A stretch of DNA of 24,000 nucleotides from Candidatus Heimdallarchaeota archaeon (GCA_019058275.1 JAHLVW010000045.1:81664-105663), one strand, 5' to 3'. Positions 192-24,000 are shown, counted from the first letter of the stretch. Notes: generated from the sequence alone by a model not told the origin. Numbers and translations: made by a program.

Positions 192-349
192 AATAGCAGC
201 TAAATTTCTAGAAAAAAATCCAAAAATAAAGGAAGCATGGGAAAAAGCAGGTTGGAAACCACCAATTAATAATGAAGAAAGCTAGTAAATTCTTGATTCA
301 TTAATAAGATTTAAAAAAAGGTAAAGACAGCAATTGAAATACAAAAAAT

Positions 350-426
350 GCCACTGTGGCTCAGCCTGGTAGAGCGACAGACTTGTAATCTGTTGGTCAG
401 GGGTTCAAATCCCCTCAGTGGCTCCA
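350..426 (+). tRNA. tRNA-Thr, anticodon UGU, with genomically encoded CCA
   Basis: Hand-folded cloverleaf: acceptor GCCACTG/CAGTGGC, D arm GCTC-AGCCTGGTA-GAGC, anticodon stem ACAGA/TCTGT with loop CT-TGT-AA, T arm AGGGG-TTCAAAT-CCCCT, discriminator T, then CCA (424-426). A T5 run follows at 432-436. Confidence 0.93.
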
Positions 427-587
427 TTCAGTTTTTGTAACATCTTATAGAGTGTCATAATAAATAAGACCTATATTAATTCTTTTTATTGAGAAAAAAT
501 CAAATCATTTGTAGACTTATTTTGGTAATATAATCAAACAAGCATTTAGATAGATATTTTCAATGATAACAAGGAAGATGATTAAGA

Positions 588-3335: not shown

Positions 3336-3354
3336 ATTCCTTCTTTTTCTTAAA

Positions 3355-6519: not shown

Positions 6520-7413
6520 TTAGGATTGAGAATCAATCCATTTTCTCAATGATTGAATGTGATTAGGAGATGTCCCACAACAACCACCAACTATTTTTAC
6601 ACCTAGCTTAATAATAGAGGTAATATCGCGCACAAATACTTCAATAGGTTGATTATAGACTGTTTTAAAATCTTGTAAAGTAGGTTTGCCAGCATTAGGC
6701 TTCACTGATAAAGGATAATCCGTTAATTCTATTGCTTCTCTTACTAAATCAATAAATAAAGTTGAACCAGGATCGCAATTAGCACCTATAACATCAACTT
6801 CTTCCTTTTCAAGAAGTTGGATGCATTGTATAAGCGAATTTCCCATTAAAGTATAGAATCCTTTCTTACCTTTGTTTATAATAAAAGAAGCAATGATAGG
6901 TTTAGAAGAGACTTCTTTAATTGCAGATAACGCAGCATGCATTTCTTCAATATCAATAAATCCCATAGCATGCCAAAGATTAACACCTTCCCCATCATCA
7001 CCTTCTAGAATCTCTACTTGTTTAAGGAAACCTTCTCTCCATTTTTCAAAGGTACCAGATCCTAAAGGATCTCGAAACTCACTTGATGGACCAATTTCTC
7101 CAACAATTAGTTTTCCTTTAGGACACACTTCCTTGATATTCTGAAGAGCTAGTTTATTGATTTCCTTTAATTTATCAGCCATTTTATGCTTTCGAAGATT
7201 AAGATAATTTGCATTAAGTGTGATTGTTTGAACCATATCTGCTCCAGCTAAATAAAAGGATTTGAGTACTGATTTAACTGTTTCTGGATTTTGGATGTTT
7301 AATATATCTGGAGGTTTCCCAGATGTGAATCCCTTTTTTATTAATTCGGTTCCACTAGAACCATCACCTAATATTACTCTCGCTGGATCTTTCAACCATT
7401 TTATGAAGGACAT
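6520..7413 (-). CDS. Homocysteine S-methyltransferase-domain protein (Hcy-binding domain, MmuM / MetH N-terminal-like)
   Basis: 297 aa. Zn-ligand cysteines are in the family-typical contexts VIGANCDPG and VGGCCGTSPNHI. Confidence 0.8.
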   Translation of the reverse strand: MSFIKWLKDPARVILGDGSSGTELIKKGFTSGKPPDILNIQNPETVKSVLKSFYLAGADMVQTITLNANYLNLRKHKMADKLKEINKLALQNIKEVCPKGKLIVGEIGPSSEFRDPLGSGTFEKWREGFLKQVEILEGDDGEGVNLWHAMGFIDIEEMHAALSAIKEVSSKPIIASFIINKGKKGFYTLMGNSLIQCIQLLEKEEVDVIGANCDPGSTLFIDLVREAIELTDYPLSVKPNAGKPTLQDFKTVYNQPIEVFVRDITSIIKLGVKIVGGCCGTSPNHIQSLRKWIDSQS

Positions 7414-7580: not shown

Positions 7581-8411
7581 ATGACGTATGTGGAGATATC
7601 AGAATCAGTAGTATTTGCACAGAATGAGTGGGGATCAAATTCTGTTTGCATTGCTTTAGAGGATGAGTTGATCTTTATTGATACAGGATTAAATACTTCA
7701 GATGCAAGAGCTTTTAGAGAATCTATGGAAGCAAAATACAATCGTAAAGCTAGTACTTTAATCCTTACTCATGGACATATTGATCATTTCTTCGGTATGG
7801 CTGCATATTCAGACCTACAAGTTGTTGCTGCTGAAATAGGAAAAGAAAGATTCAATAGAATAATTAGTGCAGAATATAATACTGAATTTGTTGAGAATAT
7901 GTCTAAATATTTCTTGGGTTTCAAGGAATCTGTTAAAGAAGCAAAGCCTTTCATGCCTACGATTTGGATCGATGAGAAAATAACTATTGGTATGAATAAA
8001 GAGCTGATCTTTGAGATTAAAGGTGGGCATTCAGGTTGTTCATCAGTAATTCATTATGTTCCAGAAAAAGTTGTCATTACCGGTGATCTTCTACAAGTGG
8101 ATGTTTATCCTTACTTTGGTGAACCAGATACAGATTTAGAGAAATGGATAAGTGCACTAAAGACCTGGGAAGGTATGGATATTAAAGCAGTTTTACCTGG
8201 TCATGGTAGACACGTTGAAAAATCCTATCTAACTGGAGTAAGAGTTTTCTTTGAGGAAATGTTAGCTACAGTAAAGCAATTGAAAGCTGATGGAATACAA
8301 ATAGAAGAAGTTGCTTACAATTCGAAAATTCCTGCTGGATATTGGCCAAAAGAAGCTGTTAGAAAACCTGCATATGATTTCAGTATAACTAATCTATACA
8401 GAAAACTCTGA
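7581..8411 (+). CDS. Metallo-beta-lactamase-fold hydrolase
   Basis: HxHxDH motif (LILTHGHIDHFFG), later GGHSGCS and PGHG metal-ligand motifs. 276 aa. Confidence 0.82.
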   Translation: MTYVEISESVVFAQNEWGSNSVCIALEDELIFIDTGLNTSDARAFRESMEAKYNRKASTLILTHGHIDHFFGMAAYSDLQVVAAEIGKERFNRIISAEYNTEFVENMSKYFLGFKESVKEAKPFMPTIWIDEKITIGMNKELIFEIKGGHSGCSSVIHYVPEKVVITGDLLQVDVYPYFGEPDTDLEKWISALKTWEGMDIKAVLPGHGRHVEKSYLTGVRVFFEEMLATVKQLKADGIQIEEVAYNSKIPAGYWPKEAVRKPAYDFSITNLYRKL

Positions 8412-11109: not shown

Positions 11110-11186
11110 GGCCGGGTAGTCTAGCACGGTATGATACTTGCTTTGGGAGTAAGTGGTCGCGGATTCAAATTCCGCCCCGGCCACCA
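11110..11186 (+). tRNA. tRNA-Pro, anticodon UGG, with encoded CCA
   Basis: Acceptor GGCCGGG/CCCGGCC, anticodon stem CTTGC/GTAAG with loop TT-TGG-GA, T arm GCGGA-TTCAAAT-TCCGC, discriminator A, CCA at 11184-11186. Confidence 0.9.
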
Positions 11187-11190
11187 TTAC

Positions 11191-11202
11191 TTTTGTTTTT
11201 TT
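11191..11202 (+). terminator. Oligo-T tract after tRNA-Pro
   Basis: TTTTGTTTTTTT lies immediately downstream of the tRNA 3' end. This is the archaeal-style oligo-T termination signal. Confidence 0.45.
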
Positions 11203-11261
11203 CTTATTCTTTTGTCATTTTAGTTATTATATCCTTAGTAATTATTTTTCCCTTCATTCAT

Positions 11262-11882
11262 TCATCTTTTCATTTTTATTGGATCATTTCTCTCTTCATC
11301 ATCTATTATTATAAACACTCCAACATTTCTTTTGATATATTCCTCTGTCCATTCTTTCTTAATCCTCCATCCCCCTGTTGCAAACACACCATTATCCATA
11401 TCGTAGAATGGTACATGTGTGTGGCTGATGATTAGTTTGTCTGTTGTCAATATCATTGGCAAGAAGTCAGAGCCTTTGTTTACTAATCGATTTTTTAGTG
11501 CATTTGCTGCTTGCCCCCATGTTTCATCTGCTCTTTTCACTAAACCGATATTATGTCCATGACAAACAATAATTCGCCCTTCCTTTGTGTTTAATATTGC
11601 CCATGGTAATACTTGAATGGTTGGGCAATCGAATAATATATTTCCTTCATGCCCCATCCCACCTGTTATGAAAATTATTTTTTCTTTCCATTTTTTATTG
11701 TCTATCCATTTTAAGAATCTCTTTAGCGCATTTTTTCCTTTTTCATCATAAGCATCTATAAAGTCGCCATTTAATATTATGAGATCTACTTTACTTGCAA
11801 CACTTTCTATTGCTTCTTTAAACTCCTCCTCTAAGCAACCATCTGCTCCTAAATGCGTATCACTAAATATCCCTGTCATCAT
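11262..11882 (-). CDS. Calcineurin-like metallophosphoesterase (MPE; candidate nuclease/phosphodiesterase)
   Basis: All five MPE motifs appear in order: SDTHLG (DxH), NGDFID (GDxxD), GGMGHEG (GNHE-like variant), VCHGHN (GH), ISHTHVP (GHxH-like). The start overlaps the helicase stop by 17-20 nt. AAGGAAAG SD. Confidence 0.82.
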   Translation of the reverse strand: MMTGIFSDTHLGADGCLEEEFKEAIESVASKVDLIILNGDFIDAYDEKGKNALKRFLKWIDNKKWKEKIIFITGGMGHEGNILFDCPTIQVLPWAILNTKEGRIIVCHGHNIGLVKRADETWGQAANALKNRLVNKGSDFLPMILTTDKLIISHTHVPFYDMDNGVFATGGWRIKKEWTEEYIKRNVGVFIIIDDEERNDPIKMKR

Positions 11883-14220
11883 CTTTCCTTATCATCTCCT
11901 CAAGCATTTTTCTTGTGCTGTCTTTTACTTTTTCTGAAGTATTACTCGTTATTTGACTTATTTCCTCATCTGCACTCTCTTGCAATAAGTCATGCATTGC
12001 TCTTAACACTCGCTTTATTCTTGTAAAAACCGCTTCAGCATTTCCTAACTCCCCTCCTCGATCATAAAGGGCAATCTTGTTTTCATAATAATTTGTGTAT
12101 GTACGAAATGATGACTCTGAGATATGAAGCTCTAATTCAATGCTTTTCATCAGCAATTCCTTTAACAATCTTATTGCTTGTTTCTTTTGTTCTTTTGAAA
12201 GAGCGTTTGTAAGACTTGCTACCTCAATAAGCATTCCACTTGTTTTTTCATCCCAAATGTGATTTTGTAGTTCATTTTCTCTTTTTTCCCTATTAATTAC
12301 TAATGGCGTTTCATTTTGAGTTGGACTCGTTGATTGGCTCTCAAGTAACTTCCCATCTTTTGAGTATCTCATTATTTCACTTGTTTCCCAACGAATGATC
12401 ATCTCACCAAATCGTATTGTTAGCTTCTCAAGTTCCTGCACTCTTGATTGCCCGTCAATGATAAAAAGAGGTGGTTTCATCCTGTTTCGTTCAACTGCTG
12501 TTTTGTTTATGTTAAGTTTATCAACAATTACTTTTTCGTTAGCTAACCTTTTTACTCTGTAAACTTTACCTTTACTTCCTAGATGTAATAGGTTCCCTGG
12601 TAGGGCTGAAAAGATTATGCGGCGCTCATCTATCGAAGCAATTTTCTCACTCTGATTTTCGTTAGTATTGTCTATTATCTCCCATCGTGGTTCTATCGAG
12701 CGGATTCGATGTTTCCTGATAAAAGCATTGACCCCATTTCTATTGGCAATAATCAAAGTCCTTTCAATAAAGGGCAAGTGATTGTTTTCAGTTGAAAGTA
12801 AACCTTTTGCAAACAATAATGCTATAGCTGTTCGTGTAATACTAGAATCTAATTCCTCTTTGCAAAAAGATAAAATATCATCAATCTTAGTTATGCCCAA
12901 AACCACCCTCAAGAGTACGAATGCTTGTGTTCTTTGCAGAGCTTTTGAGTCAAAGAGTATTCGTTCTGTTTTATTTTCTGTTAGAATCTCTTCTATTTTT
13001 TTGGGGTGATTCAAATAACAATTATCAATTGCTTTTTCATTATTGAATACTAATGAAAAATTCTTTTTCTTAGAAATATCTGAAAACCTTAATCTTCCCA
13101 ATCGTTGTAATAGACCATTTACTCCTGTAATTGGCCATGAAATATTTACTATATGAACGATATTTGGTATATCCATACCCAGCTCTAGTAATGATGTCGT
13201 AAAAACAAACCTTATTGTGCCATTATAAATTCCCTTCAGAATGTCTGTTTTTTCTTGACCAGTTAATTGACTATTAATACAAGCAAATGGCGAATGCCTT
13301 TGTAGGATTTCATCAGGTATGTTTGTTTTTTTCTTAAATAGCTCATTACATTTTGCTACCAACTCACCTACCTTTTGGATATCATCAACAAAGATCACGC
13401 AAGCCCCTTTTACTCTTCGCAAGTAAGGGTCTAACTTCTCTAATAGCAAATCTTCAATTGATTCTGGTTGAAGAATCATTACTCGAATAGTTCCTCTTGT
13501 TGCATTTCCGGTTATTATTTGAGCAGTTGGAAGGAATTTATCACGAAAGGTTTCTACTTCTTTTACTGTTGCAGAAGCTAGAACTACTCTTACTCTTGAA
13601 TTTATCTTTTTCAAGATCGCAATCATTTCTCTAATATGTGCTAGGTACCCTCCTGAACCTGCATGTATCTCATCAACAACAAAGACCCCAACATTAAGGA
13701 GCCAACTAAGAAAATCCTCATTGCCTTCTTTAAAAAAGCGATAGAACAATTTGTCTATGGTTGCTAGGAGGATTTTAGGTTTCTTCTTCTCTATTACTTC
13801 AATTTCTTTTCGAGTTAAATCTCCATTATATCTGCTATATGTTATCTTTTTTCCAGTTACTTCAAAGATCTTATTGCAATATTTTGCAATACGTTGTTCT
13901 TGATCCTCAGCAAGCTGTTTTGTTGGGTAGATTATAACAGCACAGTCTATTCTATTATTAGCAATGTCCTCAAAAATTGGAAATAAAAATGATTCAGATT
14001 TTCCTGAACCTGTTCCAACTGCGAGAAAACAATCATTTCTTTTGAGAATTGTGCTAATCGCTTCTAATTGATATTTATAGAGTTTATATGGCAATAATTC
14101 TTGGACACTTTTACCAATTATTTTCAAACCAACATCATCATCACCTACATAATAATCAGACACCTCACAATTTGATGGTGGTAGATCAAACACTGATTTC
14201 ACAGGAATTCCTTTTGACAT
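11863..14220 (-). CDS. SF2 DExH-box helicase with winged-helix and cysteine-less DUF1998-like C-terminal region (YprA/MrfA/Hrq1/DrmA-B-like)
   Basis: Motif I VGTGSGKS, Ia YPTKQLAEDQ, II VVDEIH, III ASAT, V TTSLLELGMDIP, VI QRLGRLRF. C-terminal IALYDRGGELGNAE resembles the LYD..PGG.G signature of DUF1998. The ATG at 14220 is chosen (GGAGGGATAAAG-ATG) rather than the upstream extension to 14262. Confidence 0.85.
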   Translation of the reverse strand: MSKGIPVKSVFDLPPSNCEVSDYYVGDDDVGLKIIGKSVQELLPYKLYKYQLEAISTILKRNDCFLAVGTGSGKSESFLFPIFEDIANNRIDCAVIIYPTKQLAEDQEQRIAKYCNKIFEVTGKKITYSRYNGDLTRKEIEVIEKKKPKILLATIDKLFYRFFKEGNEDFLSWLLNVGVFVVDEIHAGSGGYLAHIREMIAILKKINSRVRVVLASATVKEVETFRDKFLPTAQIITGNATRGTIRVMILQPESIEDLLLEKLDPYLRRVKGACVIFVDDIQKVGELVAKCNELFKKKTNIPDEILQRHSPFACINSQLTGQEKTDILKGIYNGTIRFVFTTSLLELGMDIPNIVHIVNISWPITGVNGLLQRLGRLRFSDISKKKNFSLVFNNEKAIDNCYLNHPKKIEEILTENKTERILFDSKALQRTQAFVLLRVVLGITKIDDILSFCKEELDSSITRTAIALLFAKGLLSTENNHLPFIERTLIIANRNGVNAFIRKHRIRSIEPRWEIIDNTNENQSEKIASIDERRIIFSALPGNLLHLGSKGKVYRVKRLANEKVIVDKLNINKTAVERNRMKPPLFIIDGQSRVQELEKLTIRFGEMIIRWETSEIMRYSKDGKLLESQSTSPTQNETPLVINREKRENELQNHIWDEKTSGMLIEVASLTNALSKEQKKQAIRLLKELLMKSIELELHISESSFRTYTNYYENKIALYDRGGELGNAEAVFTRIKRVLRAMHDLLQESADEEISQITSNTSEKVKDSTRKMLEEMIRKDDDRDI

Positions 14221-14222
14221 CT

Positions 14223-14774
14223 TTATCCCTCCACCAATCTTGCGCTGATAATGAACTCCCAAATTAACTCAACTTTATTTTTCAGAAATTTTTTGAATCC
14301 ATCATCGAAACCTTCCGGTGAGTATGCTTCAACTATTTCATCAACAGCTAAATCAATCATATCAATTTGATTATCTTCTTCTATAAATTCCACTTGACTA
14401 AGCATTTCTTTGATTCCCTGTTGAAGGAGTTCTTCCTGCTTCCTCATAGCAAAATTTCTTTCTTGCCTTTCTGCTATTTCATCAAGTCTTTGATATTCAA
14501 TTAACATTTCAGGTGGTAACTCTTTTCCAGTGGTCAAGCATAGATATAGCTTATTTAATTGAACCAATTTATCTTCCTTGAGCCAATATCTGTAAAGATT
14601 TCTACTTCCAACACGCTTGATCAAGCCATCTTGTTGTAATACCTCGAGAGTAAGATAGGTCTCACTGAGTGGTAAATTTACTTCAATAGAAATCTCTTTG
14701 GCACTCTTAGGATAATTGATACCATGTTTATTGTATTCCTCAAGCAAAAAGAGCATTACTCCAAGTTTATCCAT
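14223..14774 (-). CDS. wHTH DNA-binding protein with acidic/coiled C-terminal half
   Basis: wHTH-like N-terminus: YPKSAKEISIEVNLPLSETYLTLEVLQQDGLIKRVGSRNLYRYWL. The stop TAA at 14223-14225 lies 2 nt before the helicase ATG. An alternative ATG at 14756 shares one base with the upstream stop (TAATG). Confidence 0.7.
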   Translation of the reverse strand: MDKLGVMLFLLEEYNKHGINYPKSAKEISIEVNLPLSETYLTLEVLQQDGLIKRVGSRNLYRYWLKEDKLVQLNKLYLCLTTGKELPPEMLIEYQRLDEIAERQERNFAMRKQEELLQQGIKEMLSQVEFIEEDNQIDMIDLAVDEIVEAYSPEGFDDGFKKFLKNKVELIWEFIISARLVEG

Positions 14775-16252
14775 GATACAGGCAACTCCAACATTGTTTC
14801 ACGAAATTCATTAGTAATTGGTGATAATTGGCCAATTGTTCTACCATGCTTTTGATGATGTTTTTCTTCTCTATCAGGAAAGAGGAAAGCTAACTTTTCA
14901 AAATTAGTAATTTCATGATTCACTCTTTGTTCTATGTTTTTTGATCTCATCCAAACTAATGGTTGAAAATCTAATTTTTGTGTCTCCTCTTGGCAGATTT
15001 GGAAAATATTATCATTCAAATTCTCCCTAATCCCAGTTGGCAAACATTCCCACTCTAATACTAATCGCCACAATTTAACTGCTAAATTATCCCCGAAAAT
15101 TGAGTTTTTTATGGATAGGTGCTCCTCCTCTAACCTATTGCCTACATTTGTCAAGAGAAGATCAAATCTGTCGATTTCTTCCCTACAAGCATCTCTAAAA
15201 GAAGAATACTGTTTTCCTCGATAATAACAAGGGTTTTCGAAGAGTTCTTCCTTCTTTTCAAAAAGGATTTCGTATCCGTATCGTGTTACAGCGTAAGTTC
15301 TCCCCCCTTTGAACGCTGTTAACCGCTTAATTTCATCATGAGTAATTTCTTCAGCTAAGATGGCATCAACTAGCATGTAGTGACCTGCTTTCTTCAGTGA
15401 ATCACCAAAATCTAATGGTAACCCCATCCAAGAGAGATCAGAATAATAACTAAAGTGAGAGAAACCACCAACACCTAAATAGTTAATGCCTTTCTCTTCC
15501 AGAAGAGTCCATATTTCTTCTTCACAGAATTGATATTCTGTATTAAACAATACATCAGTAGGTGTTTGAGCCATACTGTTGAAGTTTCCAATCATGCGCT
15601 TGTGTCTGTAGAGACGGTCAGAAACTCTATGGCTTATTCCAAAATCATGTGGAGCTATTAGTTCATTCGTGAACTTCCAGAGAACCTCAGCAGCAAAACC
15701 TTCTGCAGAATTGCATAACTTGTTTGTATGACTATGATAACCAAAGAGATAAGCGTCACCGATTTTATCAATATGTTTCTTTAATGCTCTCTGATCAGGT
15801 AACATTTCTTGCAAAGTAAAAATAAGACTAAGATCACTCTTCATAGCTGTTTTCATGTAAAGATTATTGAAACCATTTCCTAATCTTATGGCATCAACAT
15901 AGCCTGCTCTCTTTGGTTCAATTCGTTCAACATTAAACCAACCGCAGAGGTTTGTTTTCCGCTCGTAATAGCAACCATGATCAAGTAATCGTTGCTTAAT
16001 CTCATCATCTATACCAGCATAATCAAAGATGTACTTGATATCTTGTAGCTTATATCTTACATCTCCAATATACAAATCATCATTGATTATTCGCACATCA
16101 TATCCTTGATAAATTGGAATTCCTAGTTTTGTTTTTACTTGCTTAATTTCATCTGCTTCCAAACCAGTTAATTTGTATATTTGATCATATAGTATATTGT
16201 TGCTATCTTTCACACATCGTATATACTGTTTTGTTTTATTTCTATTAGTCAT
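14756..16252 (-). CDS. Hypothetical protein (498 aa), no family recognised; His-rich motifs
   Basis: ATG at 16252 (MTNRNKTKQY), preceded by a purine-rich GAGAGATAAAA, 22 nt after the upstream stop. Contains GYHSHTNK, APHDFGISHR and GVGGFSHFSYY. The upstream extension to 16366 overlaps the preceding gene and is rejected. Confidence 0.7.
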   Translation of the reverse strand: MTNRNKTKQYIRCVKDSNNILYDQIYKLTGLEADEIKQVKTKLGIPIYQGYDVRIINDDLYIGDVRYKLQDIKYIFDYAGIDDEIKQRLLDHGCYYERKTNLCGWFNVERIEPKRAGYVDAIRLGNGFNNLYMKTAMKSDLSLIFTLQEMLPDQRALKKHIDKIGDAYLFGYHSHTNKLCNSAEGFAAEVLWKFTNELIAPHDFGISHRVSDRLYRHKRMIGNFNSMAQTPTDVLFNTEYQFCEEEIWTLLEEKGINYLGVGGFSHFSYYSDLSWMGLPLDFGDSLKKAGHYMLVDAILAEEITHDEIKRLTAFKGGRTYAVTRYGYEILFEKKEELFENPCYYRGKQYSSFRDACREEIDRFDLLLTNVGNRLEEEHLSIKNSIFGDNLAVKLWRLVLEWECLPTGIRENLNDNIFQICQEETQKLDFQPLVWMRSKNIEQRVNHEITNFEKLAFLFPDREEKHHQKHGRTIGQLSPITNEFRETMLELPVSWINLE

Positions 16253-16274
16253 TTTTATCTCTCTTTTTTTCCAA

Positions 16275-18350
16275 TCAATTTCTTTCTTGAATGAGCTTAA
16301 ATGATGAACCGCACCTTGGACACCTTGTTGGTGTTGAACCTTGTTGCGGAAAGGGTGCTGTACCAAATGCTTCTAAGGGGATCATTTCACCTCGCTCATC
16401 ATAACAGAATCGGCAAAAATGGGTATATTCTTCCTCGCCCTCTTCTGTTTGTCCATCAAATCTCTTTGGATTTGATCTATAGAATTCATCAATGGAAAAT
16501 TGCATTTCTATTGTTTCCTCTTCTAGGAATGCTTCGCACGCAATAGTATCTTTTCTGAGCATCGAGGTTGTAATATAATCCATTTTTTCTTTTGGTACTT
16601 TTCGTTCTGCTGTTTCTCTTACATCCCGCCAAAAATTACAATGATTTTTTTCATAATAATAGCAGTCTCCACATTTCTTATAGAAATACTCAGGAATCTC
16701 TTTTGTTGAATAATATGTTATTCTTTTCCCTTTTGGTGGTTTACCTGTAACAGTTTTTAGTGATAATAAATCGTTTTTCTCAAGACTAACTAATGCTCGT
16801 TCAACATCTGAACTTAATAATGAAAGGTTTAAAGCAATCAGAGTAAGTGTCATTGGAATTGTTGCATATTCTAGCTCTTCTTTGACAGCTTGTTCGATTG
16901 CTAACCGGTCTTTCTTTCCTATTAAAGGTACATCCATTAAGTCAAGGTTTTGTCCTATTGCTTTGCTGATAAGGCCAAAATTCTTTTTTGCTTCGGGTGT
17001 CATGTGCTCTTGAAGACTTGCCAATAATATTGATACTTTGAAAATAGTAAAGCTATCTTGTGTTCTTGAAAGAATTTTAGCAATAACCTCATCTTCATCA
17101 TTACCTTTAGTTTTCAACCTTCCAAGTACCATTTGTAAATCATCATAAGCTAATTTTCCATCAGTAAAATTATGGAAGATTTCCGAGATACAATTCCAAT
17201 CCAAAGTATCATTTTGTGTTCTATTTTTAATATTCAATAAAACGCCCATGGGATCTTCTCGTATTTCTTTGAAATATGTTGAAGCTATAAGGAACTTCTT
17301 GCCAAATGGCGTAAGAGTGTATATCCCTGAATTTTCTCTTACTTTAGAAATTAACGCAAAGTCACCTAGTGATTTTTGATATTTATCAAATAGACCTTCA
17401 GAGAAATTCCTTGGTTTAAACAATATTTCAATTAACATTTTTTGAAGAAAATCATGACTAGCTTCTAATTTGGATATATTTTGGAGTAATCGACAAATGA
17501 GTGAGTTTTGAATTCGTTGAATCATTTTGCTTTTTGATGGTTGTCCAGAATAGAGTCTTAACAACATTAAATATGGGAGAACAGATTGAAATTCTTCTTT
17601 AAGGACCTCTGGATTCAAATCTGAATTAAAGTAAAATTCGTGATCTCCTGAAATTTTAACCGCTGTTGTTACTATTAACATGTTCTTTTGTTCATCTAAA
17701 GGAACTAAACCTGGAGAGATGTAATGCATTCTGATGTTTTGGTTATTCGCTTTTCTCTTGAAAAACAAAATGCCATCTATATCAAAAGTAGTGAAGCTTT
17801 TTCTGGTTCTTCTTAGCGAGTCATTTTCTCTTAAAGGATCAACAAAAATATATGCGTTTGTATGTGGGAGATTAATTCTGTTCTTTAATTTAACATCAGA
17901 ACTTTTCCGATAAAGTAAGTTTCGAAGCAGACAATCATAGCTTGTAATTATCACACAATCATTTGCTGATGGGTAGCTGTTCCCTTTGAATTTTGAAAAA
18001 GTGGACGCAACTCGAATGGCATATTTATTTGATAAGGGATAAAAACCTTCATTGGATAAATTCTCAGTGGAAAAATTAGTTTCTTGATGAAGATTGAGCA
18101 TAGTGAATATCTTTCTTGCTTCATCAGCTGTTCGCACAACGATTATAGAAGATGAGTTGGCGAATCGCGAATTTAGAAGAGCTGAAGTAACAGCAATTTG
18201 TAATTGTTCATCAAGATCTGGTGTCACAAATAGCATATCTTCATCACAGCTTACTGCTTTCCGAATAGTAGCATTATCAACACCTCTTGGGAAGGGATAA
18301 TCTCGAAGAACTGTAGTAATGGCTTTTGGTAAAGCATTCACAAATCTCAT
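16275..18350 (-). CDS. Large multidomain protein (691 aa): degenerate SF2-helicase-like N-domain, wHTH, and two C-terminal Cys clusters (zinc-ribbon-like)
   Basis: ATG at 18350 (GGAGATTAAT-ATG) lies 1 nt after the upstream TAA. The N-terminus follows SF2 RecA1 spacing, but the Walker A position reads VTPDLDEQ and the DExH position reads FVDPLRE. wHTH-like LSSDVERALVSLEKNDLLSLKTV. Cys clusters: CGDC-x7-HC and CRFC-x28-CPRC. Confidence 0.72.
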   Translation of the reverse strand: MRFVNALPKAITTVLRDYPFPRGVDNATIRKAVSCDEDMLFVTPDLDEQLQIAVTSALLNSRFANSSSIIVVRTADEARKIFTMLNLHQETNFSTENLSNEGFYPLSNKYAIRVASTFSKFKGNSYPSANDCVIITSYDCLLRNLLYRKSSDVKLKNRINLPHTNAYIFVDPLRENDSLRRTRKSFTTFDIDGILFFKRKANNQNIRMHYISPGLVPLDEQKNMLIVTTAVKISGDHEFYFNSDLNPEVLKEEFQSVLPYLMLLRLYSGQPSKSKMIQRIQNSLICRLLQNISKLEASHDFLQKMLIEILFKPRNFSEGLFDKYQKSLGDFALISKVRENSGIYTLTPFGKKFLIASTYFKEIREDPMGVLLNIKNRTQNDTLDWNCISEIFHNFTDGKLAYDDLQMVLGRLKTKGNDEDEVIAKILSRTQDSFTIFKVSILLASLQEHMTPEAKKNFGLISKAIGQNLDLMDVPLIGKKDRLAIEQAVKEELEYATIPMTLTLIALNLSLLSSDVERALVSLEKNDLLSLKTVTGKPPKGKRITYYSTKEIPEYFYKKCGDCYYYEKNHCNFWRDVRETAERKVPKEKMDYITTSMLRKDTIACEAFLEEETIEMQFSIDEFYRSNPKRFDGQTEEGEEEYTHFCRFCYDERGEMIPLEAFGTAPFPQQGSTPTRCPRCGSSFKLIQERN

Positions 18351-18351
18351 A

Positions 18352-18954
18352 TTAATCTCCCTTTTCTTTTTGTGTTGAATAGTTACCAATTGCTGTGCTC
18401 CCACAATATTCCTTGATAATTGCTCTTAAATTTTCTTTTAATTCATCTTGTGACAAATGACTATTTTCTACTAAACTGTTCAAAAGTGTCTCAATAAGTT
18501 CTGATAAGTACCCCTTGTCTGTTTCTAATTGATTTAGAATATATGCTAACTCCTCTCTGTTCTTTTGTAATTGCTTAATTCCTCTCATAGAAGGTTTCAT
18601 CTGTTTTATTGTAATAGCAATTTGGAGATCAGGATAGTAAATATTTAGAATAAAACGGAATAATGGATTATTGATATTAACTTGATAAGCTTGTGTTTTT
18701 GAACGCTGAAGTTTGGTTAAAATATTGTTTTTCACTAGAAAGCTAACTAAATTATCTATTGTCCTTGAAGATAAGGATAGTTTTTCATCTATTTTGAATG
18801 CTTTTAATGAAGGATAATAATATACACCCTGATTTAATGCCTTATCAATCAAATATTTGCAGAAGATAGCTACTGAGTTTGTTACTTTTATTTTTGAACT
18901 GAATAATCCCTCATGAAAATATTGCTCTTGTACAACTGATATTTCAGAAGGCAT
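18352..18954 (-). CDS. wHTH DNA-binding protein (200 aa), first gene of the operon
   Basis: HTH-like LSLSSRTIDNLVSFLVKNNILTKLQRSK, with a helical C-terminal half. ATG at 18954. Confidence 0.65.
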   Translation of the reverse strand: MPSEISVVQEQYFHEGLFSSKIKVTNSVAIFCKYLIDKALNQGVYYYPSLKAFKIDEKLSLSSRTIDNLVSFLVKNNILTKLQRSKTQAYQVNINNPLFRFILNIYYPDLQIAITIKQMKPSMRGIKQLQKNREELAYILNQLETDKGYLSELIETLLNSLVENSHLSQDELKENLRAIIKEYCGSTAIGNYSTQKEKGD

Positions 18955-18981
18955 AATTATCAGTCTAATACTGCTAGATTT

Positions 18982-18989
18982 TATTTAAA
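18982..18989 (-). promoter_or_regulatory. Archaeal-type TATA box (TTTAAATA on the minus strand) for the six-gene operon
   Basis: Centred about 31 nt upstream of the ATG at 18954. This would give a very short or absent 5' leader. Confidence 0.4.
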
Positions 18990-18993
18990 AATC

Positions 18994-19060
18994 AATAAAT
19001 TCGCTAAAAAACAGAAAGCAAAGCAAAATCAAAAAAATAAATCGCGGAAAAACAGAAACG
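18994..19060. promoter_or_regulatory. Pair of about 25-nt direct repeats upstream of the operon promoter (candidate operator)
   Basis: AATAAATTCGCTAAAAAACAGAAAG (18994-19018) and AATAAATCGCGGAAAAACAGAAACG (19036-19060). About 21 identities with one 1-nt indel; offset is 41-42 bp. Confidence 0.45.
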
Positions 19061-19270
19061 GGAATTCATGTTATAGTTAGAAATCGTAATAATCCAGAAA
19101 AGCTCAATTTCACATCTGAAAAGAAGCCTTCTCCTACCTTATTTTTCGAAACGAGAGATTTCTTTAAGTCCCTTTAAAATTTCTAAAATTGTGTTTTTTT
19201 CTTTTTTTTTCAAATTAAAAGTGAAACTCACAAGAAATCATCTTCTAAATTCCTCTCAGAAGCTTGTGTC

Positions 19271-19337
19271 GGAACGACGACCGTAAAAGGGGCCCCCCAC
19301 GAAGTGGGGGAAATAGGTCGCACGAGGGGAGCGTTCA
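19271..19337. ncRNA. GC-rich nested-hairpin element (candidate structured RNA; strand unresolved)
   Basis: Three nested helices: GAACG (19272-76) with CGTTC (19332-36); CGACC (19278-82) with GGTCG (19316-20); CCCCCAC (19294-19300) with GTGGGGG (19304-10), closing a GAA loop. About 60% GC in a roughly 30% GC intergenic region. A T8 run lies on the plus strand about 30 nt downstream. Confidence 0.4.
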
Positions 19338-19424
19338 GCAACAGAGAAAGATATTATTGAAACTAGTTTTTTTTCTTCCGAATTTGTGAATTATTCTTTA
19401 CAGTCTTTCTCCACTGATAATTTC

Positions 19425-19445
19425 GGAATTACTCAAAAAAATTCC
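19425..19445 (-). terminator. Hairpin with T7 run downstream of the LAGLIDADG-HTH gene
   Basis: The minus strand reads GGAATT-TTTTTGAGT-AATTCC, starting 13 nt after the stop at 19458. Confidence 0.35.
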
Positions 19446-19457
19446 TTATAGGTAAAA

Positions 19458-21056
19458 TCAGTTTTTTGTTTGGAAGAATGTTTTAAGGTAAAGTTTTAGA
19501 ACAGAATTTAGTATCTTATTATTAGTAACTTTTATACCAAAATAGTCGCTTATATTTTTGTAAAGGATTTCTTTATTTTCAGATGTAGACAGGATAAGAA
19601 GATATCTATTCCGAAGTGATAAATTTCTTACAAGAGAGAGTAATTTTTCATTAGGTTGTAAGTCTAACCTTGCTTGTGTTTTACGAGAATGAAATAAATC
19701 AAGCTTATACTTATGTAAAAAAGGCATCAAATTTATTGGTGTACTAGAAATCATTAGTAATAGTTTTTCCAAAAGGGGTATTGGGAGACTATCACTATAT
19801 TCATATGAAGCTAATTTTCCTTTGGAAATCCCAAGGTATTCAGCTAAGTCTTGTTGTGTCCAAGAAAAATTATTCCGAACATTTCGTAAGAAAATAGTAC
19901 ATCCTACGACATGAAGAGTAGTAAGAAGGGAAAAGTTGAAGTAGTTTTCACCTTGTAATGAGAGAATCATTTTTGGATTAAAATCATAGATCAAAAAGTC
20001 TGTTGAGTGGTTTACTAGATTATACCTTTGTCGAGTTAGATATTCGTTAAAGTCTATCTTTTTAATCGGATGCCTTGGATGTAATACATTACTAAGGATG
20101 TCTTTTGAAATAGCTTTAATATTAACGGTGTACCCTGTTCCTAAATCTACTTCTCTTTCAGTTAATGAATATTTAATTTTATTTACATCTAAAACTCTTG
20201 CGAATTCATAAGCAAAAAATTTAGAGGAAGAGCTGAAACTAACATTGTCTTTATAACTGCCGTCTGCATCTAGTGCTCCAGACCAAAACTCCCAACGAAG
20301 ATCCTCGTCTGAAACAAAAATAAGTGGTTCTCTTAAAGCATGATACTTTTTACCGGTAATAGGTTGATCAGTTAAAAAATTGACTAATCGCACAAGCCAC
20401 TTATTATTTAGATGAAGTAACCAGACTTTTTTCTCACCGGTAACAGGCCCTTCAAATCCAAAAAGAGTTTTAGCTAGTGTTTGCATCATTTCCATGTGTT
20501 CTTTTGAAAAATCAACTATCACCACATTATGATAATTTAGATGCCCATCACCAATAACTGAGCCAAGAAAATAAGCTAAATCTCTACTTATTCTTGTAGG
20601 CATGTGAAAGTGTTCTCCCCGAGCAGATTGGAATGGAACATAATCTTGTGTTAGGAATTCTTGCCAGTGATCACTTAACCTGAATAGTGGAAAAGGTAAG
20701 CGTTTCTGATTCTCAGTGTAATCAATGATCTTTTGCTGCCACTTCTTAATGGAATAATCAATAGCTGTATCTTGAAAATAATGATGACTTCTCTCAGCTA
20801 ATGTTAATGATCGCTTACGTAATTTGCTCGCTAAATCTACTGTTAAAGAAATGTATGGTAATCTTTGAATCAGCCGTTCTCCTGCAAGAAAGTCGTGCTT
20901 GCGGATCATTATAGAGTAAAGGTTAAGTTTTCCTTGTTCTAGAAATATTTTCTCTTGCTTTTTTTGTTCTATTAACTTGTTCGCTGTTAACCATTCATTC
21001 TTTGGTGTTGGTTCCGTGTCTATCAGTAATGGATCATTTCGCCAGTTAAGCGTCAT
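19458..21056 (-). CDS. Free-standing double-motif LAGLIDADG endonuclease-like protein fused to an XRE-type HTH
   Basis: Motif 1 LAYFLGSVIGDGHL and motif 2 RWEFWSGALDADGSY lie about 95 aa apart, and both keep the acidic residue. HTH: FSWTQQDLAEYLGISKGKLASYE. The ATG at 21056 is preferred to the TTG at 21059. Confidence 0.75.
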   Translation of the reverse strand: MTLNWRNDPLLIDTEPTPKNEWLTANKLIEQKKQEKIFLEQGKLNLYSIMIRKHDFLAGERLIQRLPYISLTVDLASKLRKRSLTLAERSHHYFQDTAIDYSIKKWQQKIIDYTENQKRLPFPLFRLSDHWQEFLTQDYVPFQSARGEHFHMPTRISRDLAYFLGSVIGDGHLNYHNVVIVDFSKEHMEMMQTLAKTLFGFEGPVTGEKKVWLLHLNNKWLVRLVNFLTDQPITGKKYHALREPLIFVSDEDLRWEFWSGALDADGSYKDNVSFSSSSKFFAYEFARVLDVNKIKYSLTEREVDLGTGYTVNIKAISKDILSNVLHPRHPIKKIDFNEYLTRQRYNLVNHSTDFLIYDFNPKMILSLQGENYFNFSLLTTLHVVGCTIFLRNVRNNFSWTQQDLAEYLGISKGKLASYEYSDSLPIPLLEKLLLMISSTPINLMPFLHKYKLDLFHSRKTQARLDLQPNEKLLSLVRNLSLRNRYLLILSTSENKEILYKNISDYFGIKVTNNKILNSVLKLYLKTFFQTKN

Positions 21057-21104
21057 CAAGAATCATTCTCCAATAGCTTTGGTACGATCATACAATAAAA
21101 AGTC

Positions 21105-21314
21105 CTATTCTTCTACATACCATATCTGTGTTGGATTCTTGGTTACTCGAACCTTTTTCTTTGACTGAATTAAAGCTATCATCTCAATATATTCATTTAC
21201 AGTTCGCCAATTTAATCCTGTTTTTTTAGCGATCTTTCCCACACTTTGTGGTTCATCTGTTACCGTAGCCAATATCTGCTTGAAAATTTCCTCAGATTTC
21301 CTTCTAGAATCCAT
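21105..21314 (-). CDS. Small wHTH protein (69 aa)
   Basis: EEIFKQILATVTDEPQSVGKIAKKTGLNWRTVNEYIEMIALIQ is a typical wHTH recognition unit. It lies 45-48 nt upstream of, and co-oriented with, the LAGLIDADG-HTH gene. Confidence 0.6.
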   Translation of the reverse strand: MDSRRKSEEIFKQILATVTDEPQSVGKIAKKTGLNWRTVNEYIEMIALIQSKKKVRVTKNPTQIWYVEE

Positions 21315-21439
21315 ACTGAAACCCTCGCTATTGTATTCTTATTAAATATTGCATACTTATTTTATATAAACGCTAGCTTTATAAATATACGAAAGTATAT
21401 TATTATACAATATCATTGTAAAATAACACGGTGACACTC

Positions 21440-23599
21440 ATGTCTAACAAACGATCAAAAAACAAGCAAGTGGTTTATTCAAGTAATAAACCGGGGAGAG
21501 GAGTGAAATTCTCTGTTTATACTAACGGAGAAATTGTAATAGAAGGAGTAGGCTCTCAATATGGGTTAAACATTCCTGCTCAGTTAAAACAATGGTTAAA
21601 TCTTCCAGAAAGAAATGACTCTTTCAATTGGAAACTGAAAGCTGATCTTGAAATTATTTACGAGGATAAAAAGCATTTCTTGAAAGATATTTCAGTAACC
21701 ATTCTATTTAAATCGAAGAAATGGTTCATTAGTCCAAGTAATGTTCTTATCGAAGGAAAAAATCTTCGCAGCATACTTTCTGAGAGATCTGAATTGATCT
21801 GTTCTTTAATTTTACCTAGAAAATATTGGAGTAAAAAATATCTCCAAAGTATAAATATATTCAATTCTTTTAACTACAGCGAAAAATCAAATTTCAAAAC
21901 AATAGCTATTGGTGGAAAAGCAACAGGATTTTATGAAGTAATTCAAGACAACAAAAAACAATTTTTTATTAAATTAGAAACAAGTATGAGTGAATCAGGA
22001 GCTATACAGTTTCCAGCAGAATTAGCTCAGGTATTTAAGAATTGGACTAGCAACAAAGAATTATTCCTTTGTTTGTTTGAAGATGGACAGAAGCAAATAG
22101 TTGAAGCATCATTTGTTAAAGATAAAAGTAGACCTGAACGCATTCGAAAAGTATTGAATTTTTCTTATAATGGTGAAAGAAAAAATGTTTCCGTAATTTG
22201 TCACTCAAGTAATTTAGAATTATCATCTAAGATGAAGCAAGATGTTGAACTTAAACAAATATTAGTAAAGTTTGGTTTTCAATTAAAATCACTCAAATCA
22301 AACGTTTTTCCATTGGGAAGTCATAAAAACAAAAGATTTGAAGAAAAAGTAAGATTACTTTTTACTAATGCTTTCAATAAAACTGATGCGATAGTCAGAG
22401 ATGAGGTGGCTTTATCACCTAATTATTTAAAATCTCTCCCAATTGAAAGCCAGTATACTTTTGATTTGCTAGTATTTTATAAAAACAAGCAATTACCAAC
22501 ACCATCAAAACTTCTACTTCTAATTGAGATAAAATCATCCTTAGGTAAGAGCAAAACCAAAGTAATTAATGATAGTATAGCTAACTTGAAACATTATCAA
22601 ACGCATTTAGGAGAGGAAAATGTTCTACCAATTTTTGTTATGAATGCTGTATTCAATAAAAGAAAAAAAGAAATTATTGATATGTATAGTATTAAAAACG
22701 GTATTTTGATTCTTGACAATGATAAATTATGTTTATTCCGAGATCAACCTGAATTGTTAATTGAAACTATTCTTTCATTTAAACAAAAAATATCTCTACT
22801 GCAAAATAATCCTTTAGTTACATATCATCCACAAACTAAAGAAATTGTCAGTATAGAGAAGCTAAGAAATGAAGCATTAACATTACTTATCAATAAATCG
22901 AAGGGGGAGTTAGTTGACCGAAAAACTTTGAATTCTTATTGCATGTTAATGAATATTCGTAAAGCAGATTTCAATCGGTTATACCATTACTATGAGTCAG
23001 CTGTTAATGAAAATCATTCGATGACATCTTCATTAACTCCTCCTATTTATAAAAATAAAAGTACAATTATTTACAAAGCCATACACAATCATTTGTGTGA
23101 AAACGGTTCTGTTTCCATGATTCAAAAAATACCACAACAATGCTTTAATCGATCAAACTCTGAATTAAGACTGCATTCTCAACAAATCTATGATTTTCTA
23201 CCAAAAGAAATGCATGTTGTGGGTTTGAAAGAATATAACCATCAAGGTAAAACCTATGAAAAAATCATTCAAAAAGAACTAGAATCAAAAAAATATGAAG
23301 TAATACCTAACATCTTATTCTATTTTGCATTTCGATTAATTGAAATTGATTTATTTGCATTGAGAGAAAAGGAGCTTCTTCTTACCAGCTGCAAAAATAT
23401 GAGTAGTTTTGTTGACTTCCCACAAACTACAGTGGCGATTAAAAGAGCTGTTAAATTATTATCTTATAGAAAACAATTATTGAATGCAGATAAAGGTTTA
23501 GTATGTGTTAGAGTAAATAAACAATTTAGAGATAAATTCAAAAAGAAATTCAATAATAAAGTGTTTGCTAAGGATATTGAAGTAAAGATTACTGATTAG
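21440..23599 (+). CDS. Large protein (719 aa) with a central PD-(D/E)xK nuclease signature and a second degenerate one at the C-terminus
   Basis: FEEKVRLLF ... YTFDLLVFYKNKQLPTPSKLLLLIEIKSS gives an E...D...ExK pattern. The C-terminus has YEKIIQKELESKKYEVIP ... LIEIDLFALREKELLLTSCK (D...SxK). Two N-terminal segments look like AbrB/SpoVT units (GLNIPAQLKQWLNLP and AIQFPAELAQVFKNW). The ATG at 21440 is preferred to the GTG at 21431. TAG stop. Confidence 0.7.
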   Translation: MSNKRSKNKQVVYSSNKPGRGVKFSVYTNGEIVIEGVGSQYGLNIPAQLKQWLNLPERNDSFNWKLKADLEIIYEDKKHFLKDISVTILFKSKKWFISPSNVLIEGKNLRSILSERSELICSLILPRKYWSKKYLQSINIFNSFNYSEKSNFKTIAIGGKATGFYEVIQDNKKQFFIKLETSMSESGAIQFPAELAQVFKNWTSNKELFLCLFEDGQKQIVEASFVKDKSRPERIRKVLNFSYNGERKNVSVICHSSNLELSSKMKQDVELKQILVKFGFQLKSLKSNVFPLGSHKNKRFEEKVRLLFTNAFNKTDAIVRDEVALSPNYLKSLPIESQYTFDLLVFYKNKQLPTPSKLLLLIEIKSSLGKSKTKVINDSIANLKHYQTHLGEENVLPIFVMNAVFNKRKKEIIDMYSIKNGILILDNDKLCLFRDQPELLIETILSFKQKISLLQNNPLVTYHPQTKEIVSIEKLRNEALTLLINKSKGELVDRKTLNSYCMLMNIRKADFNRLYHYYESAVNENHSMTSSLTPPIYKNKSTIIYKAIHNHLCENGSVSMIQKIPQQCFNRSNSELRLHSQQIYDFLPKEMHVVGLKEYNHQGKTYEKIIQKELESKKYEVIPNILFYFAFRLIEIDLFALREKELLLTSCKNMSSFVDFPQTTVAIKRAVKLLSYRKQLLNADKGLVCVRVNKQFRDKFKKKFNNKVFAKDIEVKITD

Positions 23600-23611
23600 G
23601 ACTGCATTAAA

Positions 23612-24000
23612 ATGTTCATTGATAAAATTACTAGTAATTCATTACCTCCTCCAGGTGTTGGAATGACAATTAGTTTTCTTTCACTTGGAAAAGAAACAGA
23701 TACAAGTGTTGTAGTTAAGCATATCAAATCGGTTAAAAAAGCAAGTCGAAGACTTTATTGTTTATTATATGTCCATGAATACCAAGAATTAACAATTATC
23801 CAAAAAAGGGAAATTTTCAAACCTTTTATTGATGAAGAATTTGAATCTTTAAAGTATCACATGGTACTTTTTTCAGGATTATATCATATTACTGAAAATA
23901 TATCAAAATTACAAGATCTTGGAATGAATCATCCTAATGAACTTGTCCGTTGTGCTGCTATTTGGTCTCGAGCAAAATTAGGTGACCATAAGGATTTATT
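23612..24000 (+). CDS. Hypothetical protein with a HEAT/PBS-lyase-like repeat (partial; continues beyond the window)
   Basis: The ATG at 23612 is 12 nt after the upstream TAG. The frame is open to the window end. HPNELVRCAAIWSRAKLGDHKDL resembles a HEAT-like repeat (VR.AA..aLg.lGd). Confidence 0.55.
   Translation, partial: MFIDKITSNSLPPPGVGMTISFLSLGKETDTSVVVKHIKSVKKASRRLYCLLYVHEYQELTIIQKREIFKPFIDEEFESLKYHMVLFSGLYHITENISKLQDLGMNHPNELVRCAAIWSRAKLGDHKDL

Follow-up and report, generated by a model that had tools for sequence, protein, structure and literature searches.

The locus described here raises the question of what accounts for an abrupt change in gene content directly behind a tRNA gene. 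It lies in a stretch of 24,000 nucleotides (nt) from Candidatus Heimdallarchaeota archaeon (GCA_019058275.1 JAHLVW010000045.1:81664-105663; hereafter the window), where a preliminary description made from the sequence alone had placed a tRNA-anchored island, starting after a tRNA-Pro(UGG) gene at position 11187 and with its right end not seen. The data confirmed that the content switch and the boundary are real and more than chance, and they support a tRNA-anchored island with a right end past the window. As for the nature of this island, our analysis suggests, with a probability of about 0.6, that the DNA from 11187 to ~25382 is one integrated copy of a family of ~14-kb Cas1-like mobile elements, tRNA-targeting and casposon-like, which would insert themselves by means of a protein of 498 amino acids (aa). 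In this way an orphan-rich region becomes a bounded mobile element with a testable candidate integrase.

The tRNA-Pro(UGG) gene, with an encoded CCA, was called at 11110-11186 on the plus strand by both ARAGORN and Rfam (tRNA, 60.3 bits), and the same two tools called a tRNA-Thr(UGU) gene at 350-426 in the window. The block between the two tRNA genes contains 10 open reading frames (ORFs), which encode an aldo/keto reductase, an LVIVD-repeat protein, an MFS transporter, a homocysteine S-methyltransferase, an MBL hydrolase, an Ldh_2 dehydrogenase, a cupin, a methyltransferase, a winged helix-turn-helix (wHTH) protein and a 90-aa product. It had been stated that every gene on this left side is metabolic or transport-related, which is true for most of these ORFs, but not for the wHTH protein at 5668-6450 or for the 90-aa ORF, which has no Pfam match. 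To the right of tRNA-Pro the content switches abruptly, as described, to a metallophosphoesterase, a DEAD/DEAH helicase, three wHTH proteins, a protein with LAGLIDADG and HTH_3 domains, and three large orphans. Six overlapping genes on the minus strand form an operon, in the order wHTH-200, 709-aa orphan, 498-aa orphan, wHTH-183, DEAD/DEAH helicase and metallophosphoesterase, and beyond it lie the LAGLIDADG-HTH protein and a 69-aa wHTH protein, then a plus-strand 722-aa orphan and the beginning of one more gene. The proposed comparison of k-mers and codon usage of 11187-24000 against the left side was uninformative, as composition does not mark the island as foreign. The GC content of third codon positions was 0.25 in the island versus 0.21 on the left side, a permutation test of codon usage gave p=0.02, and the tetranucleotide distance between left and right (0.176) was smaller than the distances within the halves (0.20-0.22).

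Pattern searches that tolerated as many as 3 mismatches over 20 nt or 6 errors over 34 nt found no second tRNA 3′ end in the window, which agrees with the earlier statement that none occurs in the visible 12.8 kb. The sequence further to the right was read from the Logan contig L002, reached via its 69-aa protein; this contig is 100% identical to window positions 17249-24000 and runs 1438 nt further. Positions past 24000 are given as extended coordinates on this contig, the readable sequence of which ends at 25438. The extension contains the remainder of the 228-aa gene (to 24298), a tetratricopeptide-repeat (TPR) gene at 24453-25325, and then a direct repeat of the tRNA-Pro 3′ end, 14.2 kb downstream and 1.38 kb past the window end. 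The features that define the island are the following.

11110..11186, plus strand: tRNA-Pro(UGG), the integration target; its 3′ 30 nt are part of the proximal repeat copy.
11157..11215, plus strand: proximal direct-repeat copy, either an attachment (att) site or a target-site duplication (TSD), consisting of the T-arm, the acceptor 3′ strand, CCA and ~29 nt of trailer.
Extended 25383-25436 (L002 positions 56-3, minus strand), outside the window: distal direct-repeat copy, from blastn, reading of the sequence and gapped alignment.

The sequence after the TPR gene, TCGCGGATTCGAATTCCGCCCCAGCTACCATTA, is a direct copy of tRNA-Pro positions 48-77 and the trailer. The distal copy matches the proximal one over 33 nt with 3 mismatches (blastn, E=2e-6), and a gapped local alignment stretches the repeat to 59 versus 54 nt. 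No tRNA was found at the distal copy by ARAGORN with or without introns, and the DNA upstream of it is AT-rich and contains no tRNA 5′ half. The insert bounded in this way measures ~14.2 kb (11187-25382). Since 23 nt separate the distal copy from the end of a contig assembled from short reads, it could be suspected of being a product of the assembly or of chance, in which case no bounded island would exist. This explanation is very improbable, given the BLAST E value. The distal copy is not a collapsed repeat, because 3 positions differ from the tRNA, and the junction is not an assembly artefact, because the same junction occurs in an independent metagenome-assembled genome (MAG), CSMAG_1263 (L009, 73% nt identity), where a tRNA-tail copy lies between the 228-aa gene and a CBS-domain gene. 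Moreover, the boundaries of the distal copy are those of at least 10 other tail copies in relatives. The preliminary description had also proposed searching past 24000 for an integrase; unlike the repeat, a tyrosine or serine integrase was not found in the 1.4-kb extension. Its suggestion that the element might instead be fixed and decayed was not borne out, as the island is tightly packed with intact, conserved genes. In a separate observation, the Logan contigs L001 and L002 (SRR14803106) both end in the repeat or close to it: L001 breaks off after exactly 30 nt of the tRNA tail (window 11157-11186), and L002 23 nt past the 33-nt ungapped match and 2 nt past the gapped extension (25436). These contig ends fit branching of the assembly graph at att copies, and so possibly heterogeneity of the site in the sample.

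The same ordered module of 9-10 genes occurs about 20 times and, where the organism is named, only in Heimdallarchaeota. The module consists of the 722-aa NERD-type protein, the 228-aa HEAT-like protein, a small wHTH or AbrB gene, the LAGLIDADG-HTH protein, wHTH-200, the 709-aa and 498-aa proteins (18 and 20 family members, respectively), wHTH-183, the superfamily 2 (SF2) helicase and the metallophosphoesterase. Because it takes in the 722-aa, 228-aa and small wHTH/AbrB genes, it spans essentially the whole window island, and the direct repeat brackets exactly the module and one TPR gene. The TPR gene is probably cargo, since the similarity between copies is only generic for TPR. The module sits in at least five unrelated genomic neighbourhoods, which is consistent with an island that is tRNA-anchored and not fixed at one chromosomal position, and three paralogous copies (L004, L022, L023) are located on one 1.55-Mb contig.

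Other copies of the module also lie next to the 3′ ends of tRNA genes. In L023, where a tRNA-Ala(UGC) gene converges on the phosphoesterase gene, 7 nt separate its CCA end from the phosphoesterase stop codon, and partial copies of the last ~34 nt of this tRNA are found on the opposite side of the module, at distances of 13.9 and 14.5 kb. In L022 the gap between the phosphoesterase stop and the CCA end, here that of a tRNA-Lys(CUU), is 1-2 nt, and so it is in the orthologous L026. Hence, in three paralogous clades the phosphoesterase adjoins three different tRNAs in the same polarity, with its stop codon 1-75 nt from the CCA end. The phosphoesterase C-terminus varies between copies exactly at this junction, and that of the window lacks 8-16 aa relative to the other copies, which places the element junction at the phosphoesterase stop codon. 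The tRNA-Lys(CUU) gene itself was missed by both ARAGORN and Rfam; read by eye (L022 ~15041-15190 and L026 ~15034-15183, both on the minus strand), it is apparently interrupted twice, by an intron that follows the anticodon loop and by another in the region of the T-loop. A second copy of the tRNA-Lys 5′ half and its upstream region is present at 18525-18731 of L022, 3.4 kb away.

The comparison of the window with L003 showed 86.0% nt identity over 7962 nt of the element, versus 69.8% in the shared host flank that carries the MFS gene (65% at the level of the MFS protein). The element is thus more similar than its flanks, which suggests that the element was transferred after the hosts had diverged. 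Together with the tRNA anchoring of the other copies and the junction-variable end of the phosphoesterase, this gap makes it unlikely that the module is passive cargo, and the module itself behaves as the element. Some copies have lost or split genes: the 709-aa gene is broken into 2-3 ORFs in L004 and L020, which are syntenic, and the 722/228 pair is absent from L004, L006 and L018, where a TnpB gene stands beside the LAGLIDADG gene. These four copies look like decaying ones. The TnpB genes are of the OrfB_IS605/Cas12f-like type (L004 1310-2476, L006 183-1376, L018 4668-6281).

Scans of GTDB genomes and JGI metagenomes with the tRNA-tail pattern gave 11 loci, four of which are titled Heimdallarchaeota or Promethearchaeati. 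The alignment with related genomes that had been proposed showed other genes at the tRNA-Pro site, and not those of the island: a CBS gene follows tRNA-Pro directly in L011 and L013, DegV in L017, and an ABC permease in L015. In L008 the order is tRNA, PmbA/TldD, tail copy, DegV, tail copy, while L007 contains DegV, copy, a 296-aa gene, copy, CBS, copy and a membrane gene. The gene behind the last copy in L007, L008 and L009 is either a CBS gene or a membrane gene of 203 aa. The tail copies (~40 nt) begin at (A)AGTGGTCGCGG and end at CCACCA and a T-rich trailer. In L007 and L008, the only two arrays in which this could be judged, the copies distal to the tRNA are more degenerate, and the one nearest to it is the least degenerate. 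The different occupants and the tail-delimited arrays show that insertion at tRNA-Pro has happened repeatedly. The relatives compared here are distant, as their flank proteins share 56-66% identity with those of the window, and the Ldh_2 flank protein used as a query gave no match in the genome contigs. The single-gene cassettes (DegV, 296-aa membrane protein, CBS, PmbA/TldD), each followed by a ~40-nt tail copy, can be read at L007 1-1830, L008 200-4570 and L014 500-2050. Orthologous tRNA-Pro genes were found in L008, L010-L013, L015 and L017, some of them with introns of 37-48 nt. More generally, the tRNA-Thr and tRNA-Pro genes of the window have no intron, while orthologues of them in relatives carry introns of 29-48 nt at position 38/39 (L003 13045-13150, L008 207-320, L010 154-267, L012 1205-1329), the presence of which varies between close lineages.

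The preliminary description had noted that no recombinase is visible. This holds for domain searches, as Pfam, NCBIfam and PADLOC found no recombinase domain in the window proteins, and the window island, the 1.4-kb extension, L003, L004, L006, L018, L020, L022, L023 and L026 yielded neither a DDE transposase nor a recombinase of the tyrosine or serine type. It does not hold for one of the orphans, which is a candidate integrase of the Cas1 family.

14756..16252, minus strand: 498-aa divergent Cas1-family protein, candidate integrase, from AlphaFold2 (AF2) and Foldseek, bridging relatives and hhalign.

The mechanical ORF runs to 16366, and the start was set at 16252 because all homologues start there. 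A 364-aa gene beside the distal copy in L023 was also considered as an integrase and was rejected, as it has no supporting domain. The AF2 model of the 498-aa protein, obtained from 19 homologues, had a predicted local distance difference test score (pLDDT) of 66 and a predicted template modelling score of 0.65. When this model was compared with the PDB using Foldseek, the best 26 matches were all Cas1 or casposase (4n06, E 2.9e-6; 6opm, E 4.9e-6), with probability 1.0 for the top 21 and alignments of ~360 columns, while the first match to another family had an E value of 0.2. A profile search of 1.84 billion representative proteins gave 25 relatives. The distant ones are larger, and their region homologous to the 498-aa protein matches PADLOC Cas1 models (E 9e-8 to 5e-4). 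Two of the relatives, P0096 and P0097 (1300-1600 aa), have a Cas4-like PD-(D/E)xK domain upstream of this region, and P0096 is among those that match Cas1; their layout is reminiscent of Cas4-Cas1 fusions. Alignment of the broadened profile to E. coli Cas1 by hhalign (E=0.0012, probability 19.5%) placed E184/H266/D281/D284 on E141/H208/D218/D221 of E. coli Cas1, and E184, H266 and D281 are invariant within the 498-aa family. These modelling and profile data suggest that the 498-aa protein belongs to the Cas1 family, which is well supported at the level of remote homology, and we infer that it is the integrase of the element.

The proposed mechanism could be as follows. The 498-aa protein would catalyse insertion in the manner of a casposase, and the T-arm region of the tRNA would be recognized as a "leader", by analogy with family 2 casposons. 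A staggered attack on the two strands would leave a duplicated target. With the intact copy next to the tRNA being used again and again, older insertions would be displaced away from the tRNA, which would explain the tail-delimited cassette arrays in the relatives. The helicase, the phosphoesterase, the LAGLIDADG and NERD nucleases and the DNA-binding proteins may serve excision, end processing, replication, regulation or conflict with the host.

Several observations weigh against a self-inserting Cas1-like element. Direct tests of the 498-aa protein or family with HMMER, Pfam, PADLOC, PDB sequences and a narrow hhalign comparison to E. coli Cas1 were negative, only the broadened profile giving a match, so that the Cas1 link rests on a moderate AF2 model (19 sequences), transitive matches (E 1e-7 to 5e-4) and the hhalign probability of 19.5%. 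None of the ten island proteins matched a polymerase domain, of family B or any other, in Pfam, NCBIfam, PADLOC or PHROGs. Casposases normally recognize terminal inverted repeats (TIRs), and TIRs were not significant at the window element (shuffle p=0.19) or at L023 (p=0.125). The best inverted match at the element ends covers 13/14 nt with a TTAGTAATTA core (window 11231-11244 and extended 25365-25378), which is possibly a weak terminal motif; a similar TTAATTAGTAA precedes the tail copy in L009 (~2325-2340). No tRNA was found near the copies in L004, L020 and L006, and L022 and L026 have, at the far end, an inverted tRNA-Lys 5′-half copy as well as what is left of another phosphoesterase gene. 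In L003 the element is located upstream of, and co-directional with, a tRNA-Thr orthologous to that of the window, which lies 11 kb to the left of tRNA-Pro. It looks like one inversion of the 11-kb tRNA-Thr/tRNA-Pro block would relate the two gene orders, as judged from L003 12345-13150 against window 293-428 and 11262, with L003 ending before any tRNA-Pro; the genes right after tRNA-Thr also differ between the window genome and L003. The tail-delimited cassettes of the relatives hold ordinary genes and no element genes, and the read sequence of this genome ends just past the distal copy.

The flanking direct repeats, which are 33 nt with 3 mismatches in the window and about 50 nt in L023, are in their length and imperfection compatible with both a TSD and attL/attR. 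A repeat that is this long (33-59 nt) and imperfect would be no less expected of attL/attR, as left by a site-specific recombinase, than of a TSD, which also counts against a casposase-like insertion. The main rival to such insertion is an island like those made by tyrosine integrases, including tycheposons. The island would be a classical att-flanked one, formed by a tyrosine (SSV/pNOB8-type) or serine integrase that was lost or acts in trans, as in a cis-mobilizable element (CIME) or a decayed tycheposon, and the module would be cargo, for example for defence, with a Cas1-like protein that is not an integrase. We regard this as possible, if rather unlikely. It would account for the att-like tRNA 3′ copy, for the absence of terminal inverted repeats and for the arrays of ordinary genes (DegV, CBS, PmbA/TldD), and the same accretion with partial tRNAs is described for tycheposons (10.1101/2020.12.28.424599). 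It fits less well with the lack of an integrase gene or remnant at the ~12 loci examined and with a window island that leaves nearly no non-coding room, or with the fixed end and polarity at three tRNAs in three clades, which is unlike passive cargo; nor was an att-bearing or related contig found in IMG/VR.

The native composition, the lineage-restricted family with genes under purifying selection, and the stable placement of some copies, such as the syntenic L004 and L020, could also suggest that the module is a vertically inherited chromosomal repair or defence system of Heimdallarchaeia, shuffled by rearrangement, and that the tail copies are scars of older, unrelated events at a hot spot. 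The single inversion that could relate the window to L003 would agree with this explanation. It is nevertheless quite improbable, because the element is 86% and the flanks 70% identical between the two, the repeat brackets exactly the module and one TPR gene, a second bracketed copy is found at tRNA-Ala, and there are three paralogues per genome and degraded copies beside TnpB. Three other candidates were rejected. A provirus or plasmid was discarded for lack of viral hallmarks, since PHROGs matched only the helicase, exonuclease and HTH proteins and IMG/VR gave nothing for the att pattern or for the 709-aa and 722-aa proteins. A Tn7-like element, suggested by a preprint on Tn7 in Asgard archaea, was discarded because there are no TnsA/B/C/TniQ domains, and because a tRNA tail and not a 5-bp TSD is duplicated. 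As for a known defence system, PADLOC-DB 2.0 gave only generic matches to the helicase core (BrxH, SngC, Cas3, DruE) and weak ones to the wHTH proteins, and none for the 498-, 709- and 722-aa proteins.

A further step beyond the self-inserting element concerns the arrays. It is conceivable, though we hold it doubtful, that the Cas1-family enzyme adds kilobase-sized gene cassettes beside the tRNA "leader", each insertion duplicating a tail segment that includes a palindrome and has the size of a CRISPR repeat, so that a polarised array arises (tRNA, newest cassette, copy, older cassette, copy). If this were true, it would represent a living intermediate between casposon transposition and the growth of CRISPR arrays, in the archaeal lineage closest to eukaryotes, and a structured RNA may be associated with it.

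The remaining genes and elements of the island, the roles of which are predicted ones, are as follows.

11262..11882, minus strand: calcineurin-like metallophosphoesterase, 206 aa, the terminal gene of the element (Pfam Metallophos, 1e-06; PHROG DNA repair exonuclease).
11863..14262, minus strand: SF2 DEAD/DEAH helicase, maximal ORF of 799 aa (orthologues ~780; Pfam DEAD 4e-29, Helicase_C).
14223..14774, minus strand: wHTH-183, 183 aa, TrmB/Csa3-like (Pfam TrmB 4.5e-4; PADLOC Csa3 2e-4), kept in every copy.
16275..18404, minus strand: 709-aa orphan with an N-terminal RecA-like domain, winged helices and C-terminal Cys clusters.
18352..18954, minus strand: wHTH-200, 200 aa, the first operon gene, with weak HTH matches; in all copies, at 32-81% identity.
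19250..19345, minus strand: GC-rich structured element of ~95 nt, candidate non-coding RNA, between the LAGLIDADG gene and the operon (conservation, RNAalifold).
19458..21059, minus strand: LAGLIDADG protein, 533 aa, with a C-terminal XRE-type HTH (Pfam LAGLIDADG_3 7e-6, HTH_3).
21105..21314, minus strand: 69-aa winged-helix protein, HTH_45/Sso10a-like (Pfam HTH_45 1e-6; NCBIfam Sso10a 6e-6).
21431..23599, plus strand: 722-aa orphan, homologues of which have a C-terminal NERD (PD-(D/E)xK-type) nuclease domain (alignment to L003, L022, L023, L009).
23612..24000, plus strand: 228-aa HEAT-like protein, first 129 codons in the window (gene ends at extended 24298; full gene at L002 1141-1827).
Extended 24453-25325: TPR gene (Pfam TPR).

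The helicase is similar to MrfA/YprA, Lhr and Cas3, its best sequence match in the PDB being YprA (6znp, 5e-14). It has 24 full-length orthologues at 48-91% identity, all of the named ones from Heimdallarchaeota, after which identity drops to 24-28%. The C-terminal zinc-binding DUF1998 domain (PF09369) was found neither in the helicase nor in these orthologues, while the next-best relatives all have it. The AF2 model of the 709-aa protein (pLDDT 58) gave weak Foldseek matches to the RecA domains of Mtr4, Hel308, MrfA and Brr2 (E ~1e-3), and no Walker A motif was seen on reading the sequence by eye. The cysteines at 578, 581, 589, 623, 664, 667, 695 and 698 are invariant, and the clusters formed by them at the C-terminus look like zinc ribbons. 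The LAGLIDADG protein is present in every copy (47-68% identity) and matches the intein part of a V-ATPase A subunit in NCBIfam; both catalytic acidic residues are kept in its motifs as read from the translation (GDG at ~aa 180, ADG at ~aa 265). In L003, L022 and L023 the position of the 69-aa gene is taken by an AbrB/MazE-type small gene. The window copy of the 722-aa protein itself matched no family, but it shares 25-27% full-length identity with proteins of 741 aa in L003, 729 aa in L022 and 710 aa in L023, all three with Pfam NERD, and 64% with that of L009. The homologues of the 228-aa protein are in L009 (68%), L022 (29%, HEAT_2) and L023.

No tandem repeat array was found in the window, and no CRISPR array or known RNA family in the island. 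The GC-rich element at 19250-19345, which is probably the candidate non-coding RNA of the preliminary description, had no Rfam match. It stands out against a genome background of 31% GC, and RNAalifold predicted 22 pairs in it, 2 of them with compensatory changes. It is also present in L004 (~4830-4930), L006 (~3300-3400), L018 (~8165-8265), L020 and L023 (~6995-7095), which represent two clades. Upstream of the six-gene operon, a motif TCTAAAGGGACTTAAAGTAACCT was observed at ~19150-19175 on the minus strand of the window (alignment A8, columns 294-320) and is conserved in all three clades, even in copies that have no GC-rich element. This motif likely serves as a promoter or operator.

These data show that tRNA genes are hot spots of gene capture in Heimdallarchaeia, the most discussed relatives of the eukaryotic ancestor, and that the element is one vehicle of gene flow in this group. 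If the 498-aa protein is the integrase, it would represent a new branch of Cas1-driven elements, with neither polymerase nor clear inverted repeats and with long tRNA-derived duplications, which would bear directly on the evolution from casposon integration to CRISPR spacer acquisition. A site-specific integrase, possibly made of a single protein and aimed at a conserved tRNA segment, could also interest biotechnology.

The insertion 3′-distal to a tRNA, observed here for tRNA-Pro in the window, tRNA-Ala in L023 and tRNA-Lys in L022/L026, can be compared with several known systems. Family 2 casposons target tRNA 3′ ends, and that of Aciduliprofundum boonei inserts at tRNA-Pro, where the T-psi-C region is required next to a 15-bp TSD (PMC5137440). 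The TSDs of casposons are 14 to 35 nt long and are shared in tandem arrays (PMC4779613). The likeness to the family 2 casposons of A. boonei and Methanosarcina mazei thus includes a Cas1-family protein, 3′-distal insertion at tRNAs including tRNA-Pro, a T-arm beside the duplicated segment, flanking direct repeats, reuse of the site with tandem arrays, and the presence of helicases, nucleases and HTH proteins (PMC5137440, PMC4779613). On the other hand, the island lacks two defining casposon features, a family B DNA polymerase and significant TIRs, its repeat is 33-59 nt and imperfect versus 14-15 nt (rarely 35 nt), and its Cas1 homologue matches no Pfam or PADLOC Cas1 model directly. The set of LAGLIDADG-HTH, NERD, helicase-like zinc-ribbon and metallophosphoesterase genes is otherwise unique.

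Islands formed by tyrosine integrases (Islander-type, Prochlorococcus tycheposons, SSV/pNOB8-type, CIMEs) are similar in that the tRNA is kept intact while a direct repeat of its 3′ part lies displaced at the other end, in that relatives have different occupants, and in showing accretion arrays with progressively degenerate partial tRNAs (10.1101/2020.12.28.424599). Earlier work also describes islands that have no integrase, namely CIMEs and remnants (10.1101/2020.12.28.424599; PMC4383910). The window island is different in that neither it nor any related copy has a tyrosine or serine recombinase, and in keeping a fixed phosphoesterase-stop end at the tRNA in three clades. The pairing of an SF2 helicase, closest to YprA/MrfA, with an overlapping metallophosphoesterase is similar to the helicase-nuclease pairs of MrfA/YprA and Lhr (MrfAB; Lhr-MPE). 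In contrast to these, the island helicase scores 85.8 bits against a cut-off of 850 bits in NCBIfam and has no DUF1998, and the pair is embedded in a larger, mobile context of 8 genes.

The CRISPR adaptation system (Cas1-Cas2) resembles the island in the Cas1-family core of the 498-aa protein with its four aligned residues, in a duplicated segment that has the size of a CRISPR repeat and is palindromic (the T-arm), and in polarised arrays, the copies nearest to the tRNA "leader" being the least degenerate, as judged in L007 and L008. It differs in that the island contains no Cas2, CRISPR array or effector genes, and in that its inserts are gene-carrying and reach kilobases in length. Two studies (PMC8730458, PMC9939771) mention divergent Cas1 homologues that are specific to Asgard archaea, lie outside CRISPR loci and are suspected of belonging to new mobile elements, and the 498-aa family described here may already be among them.

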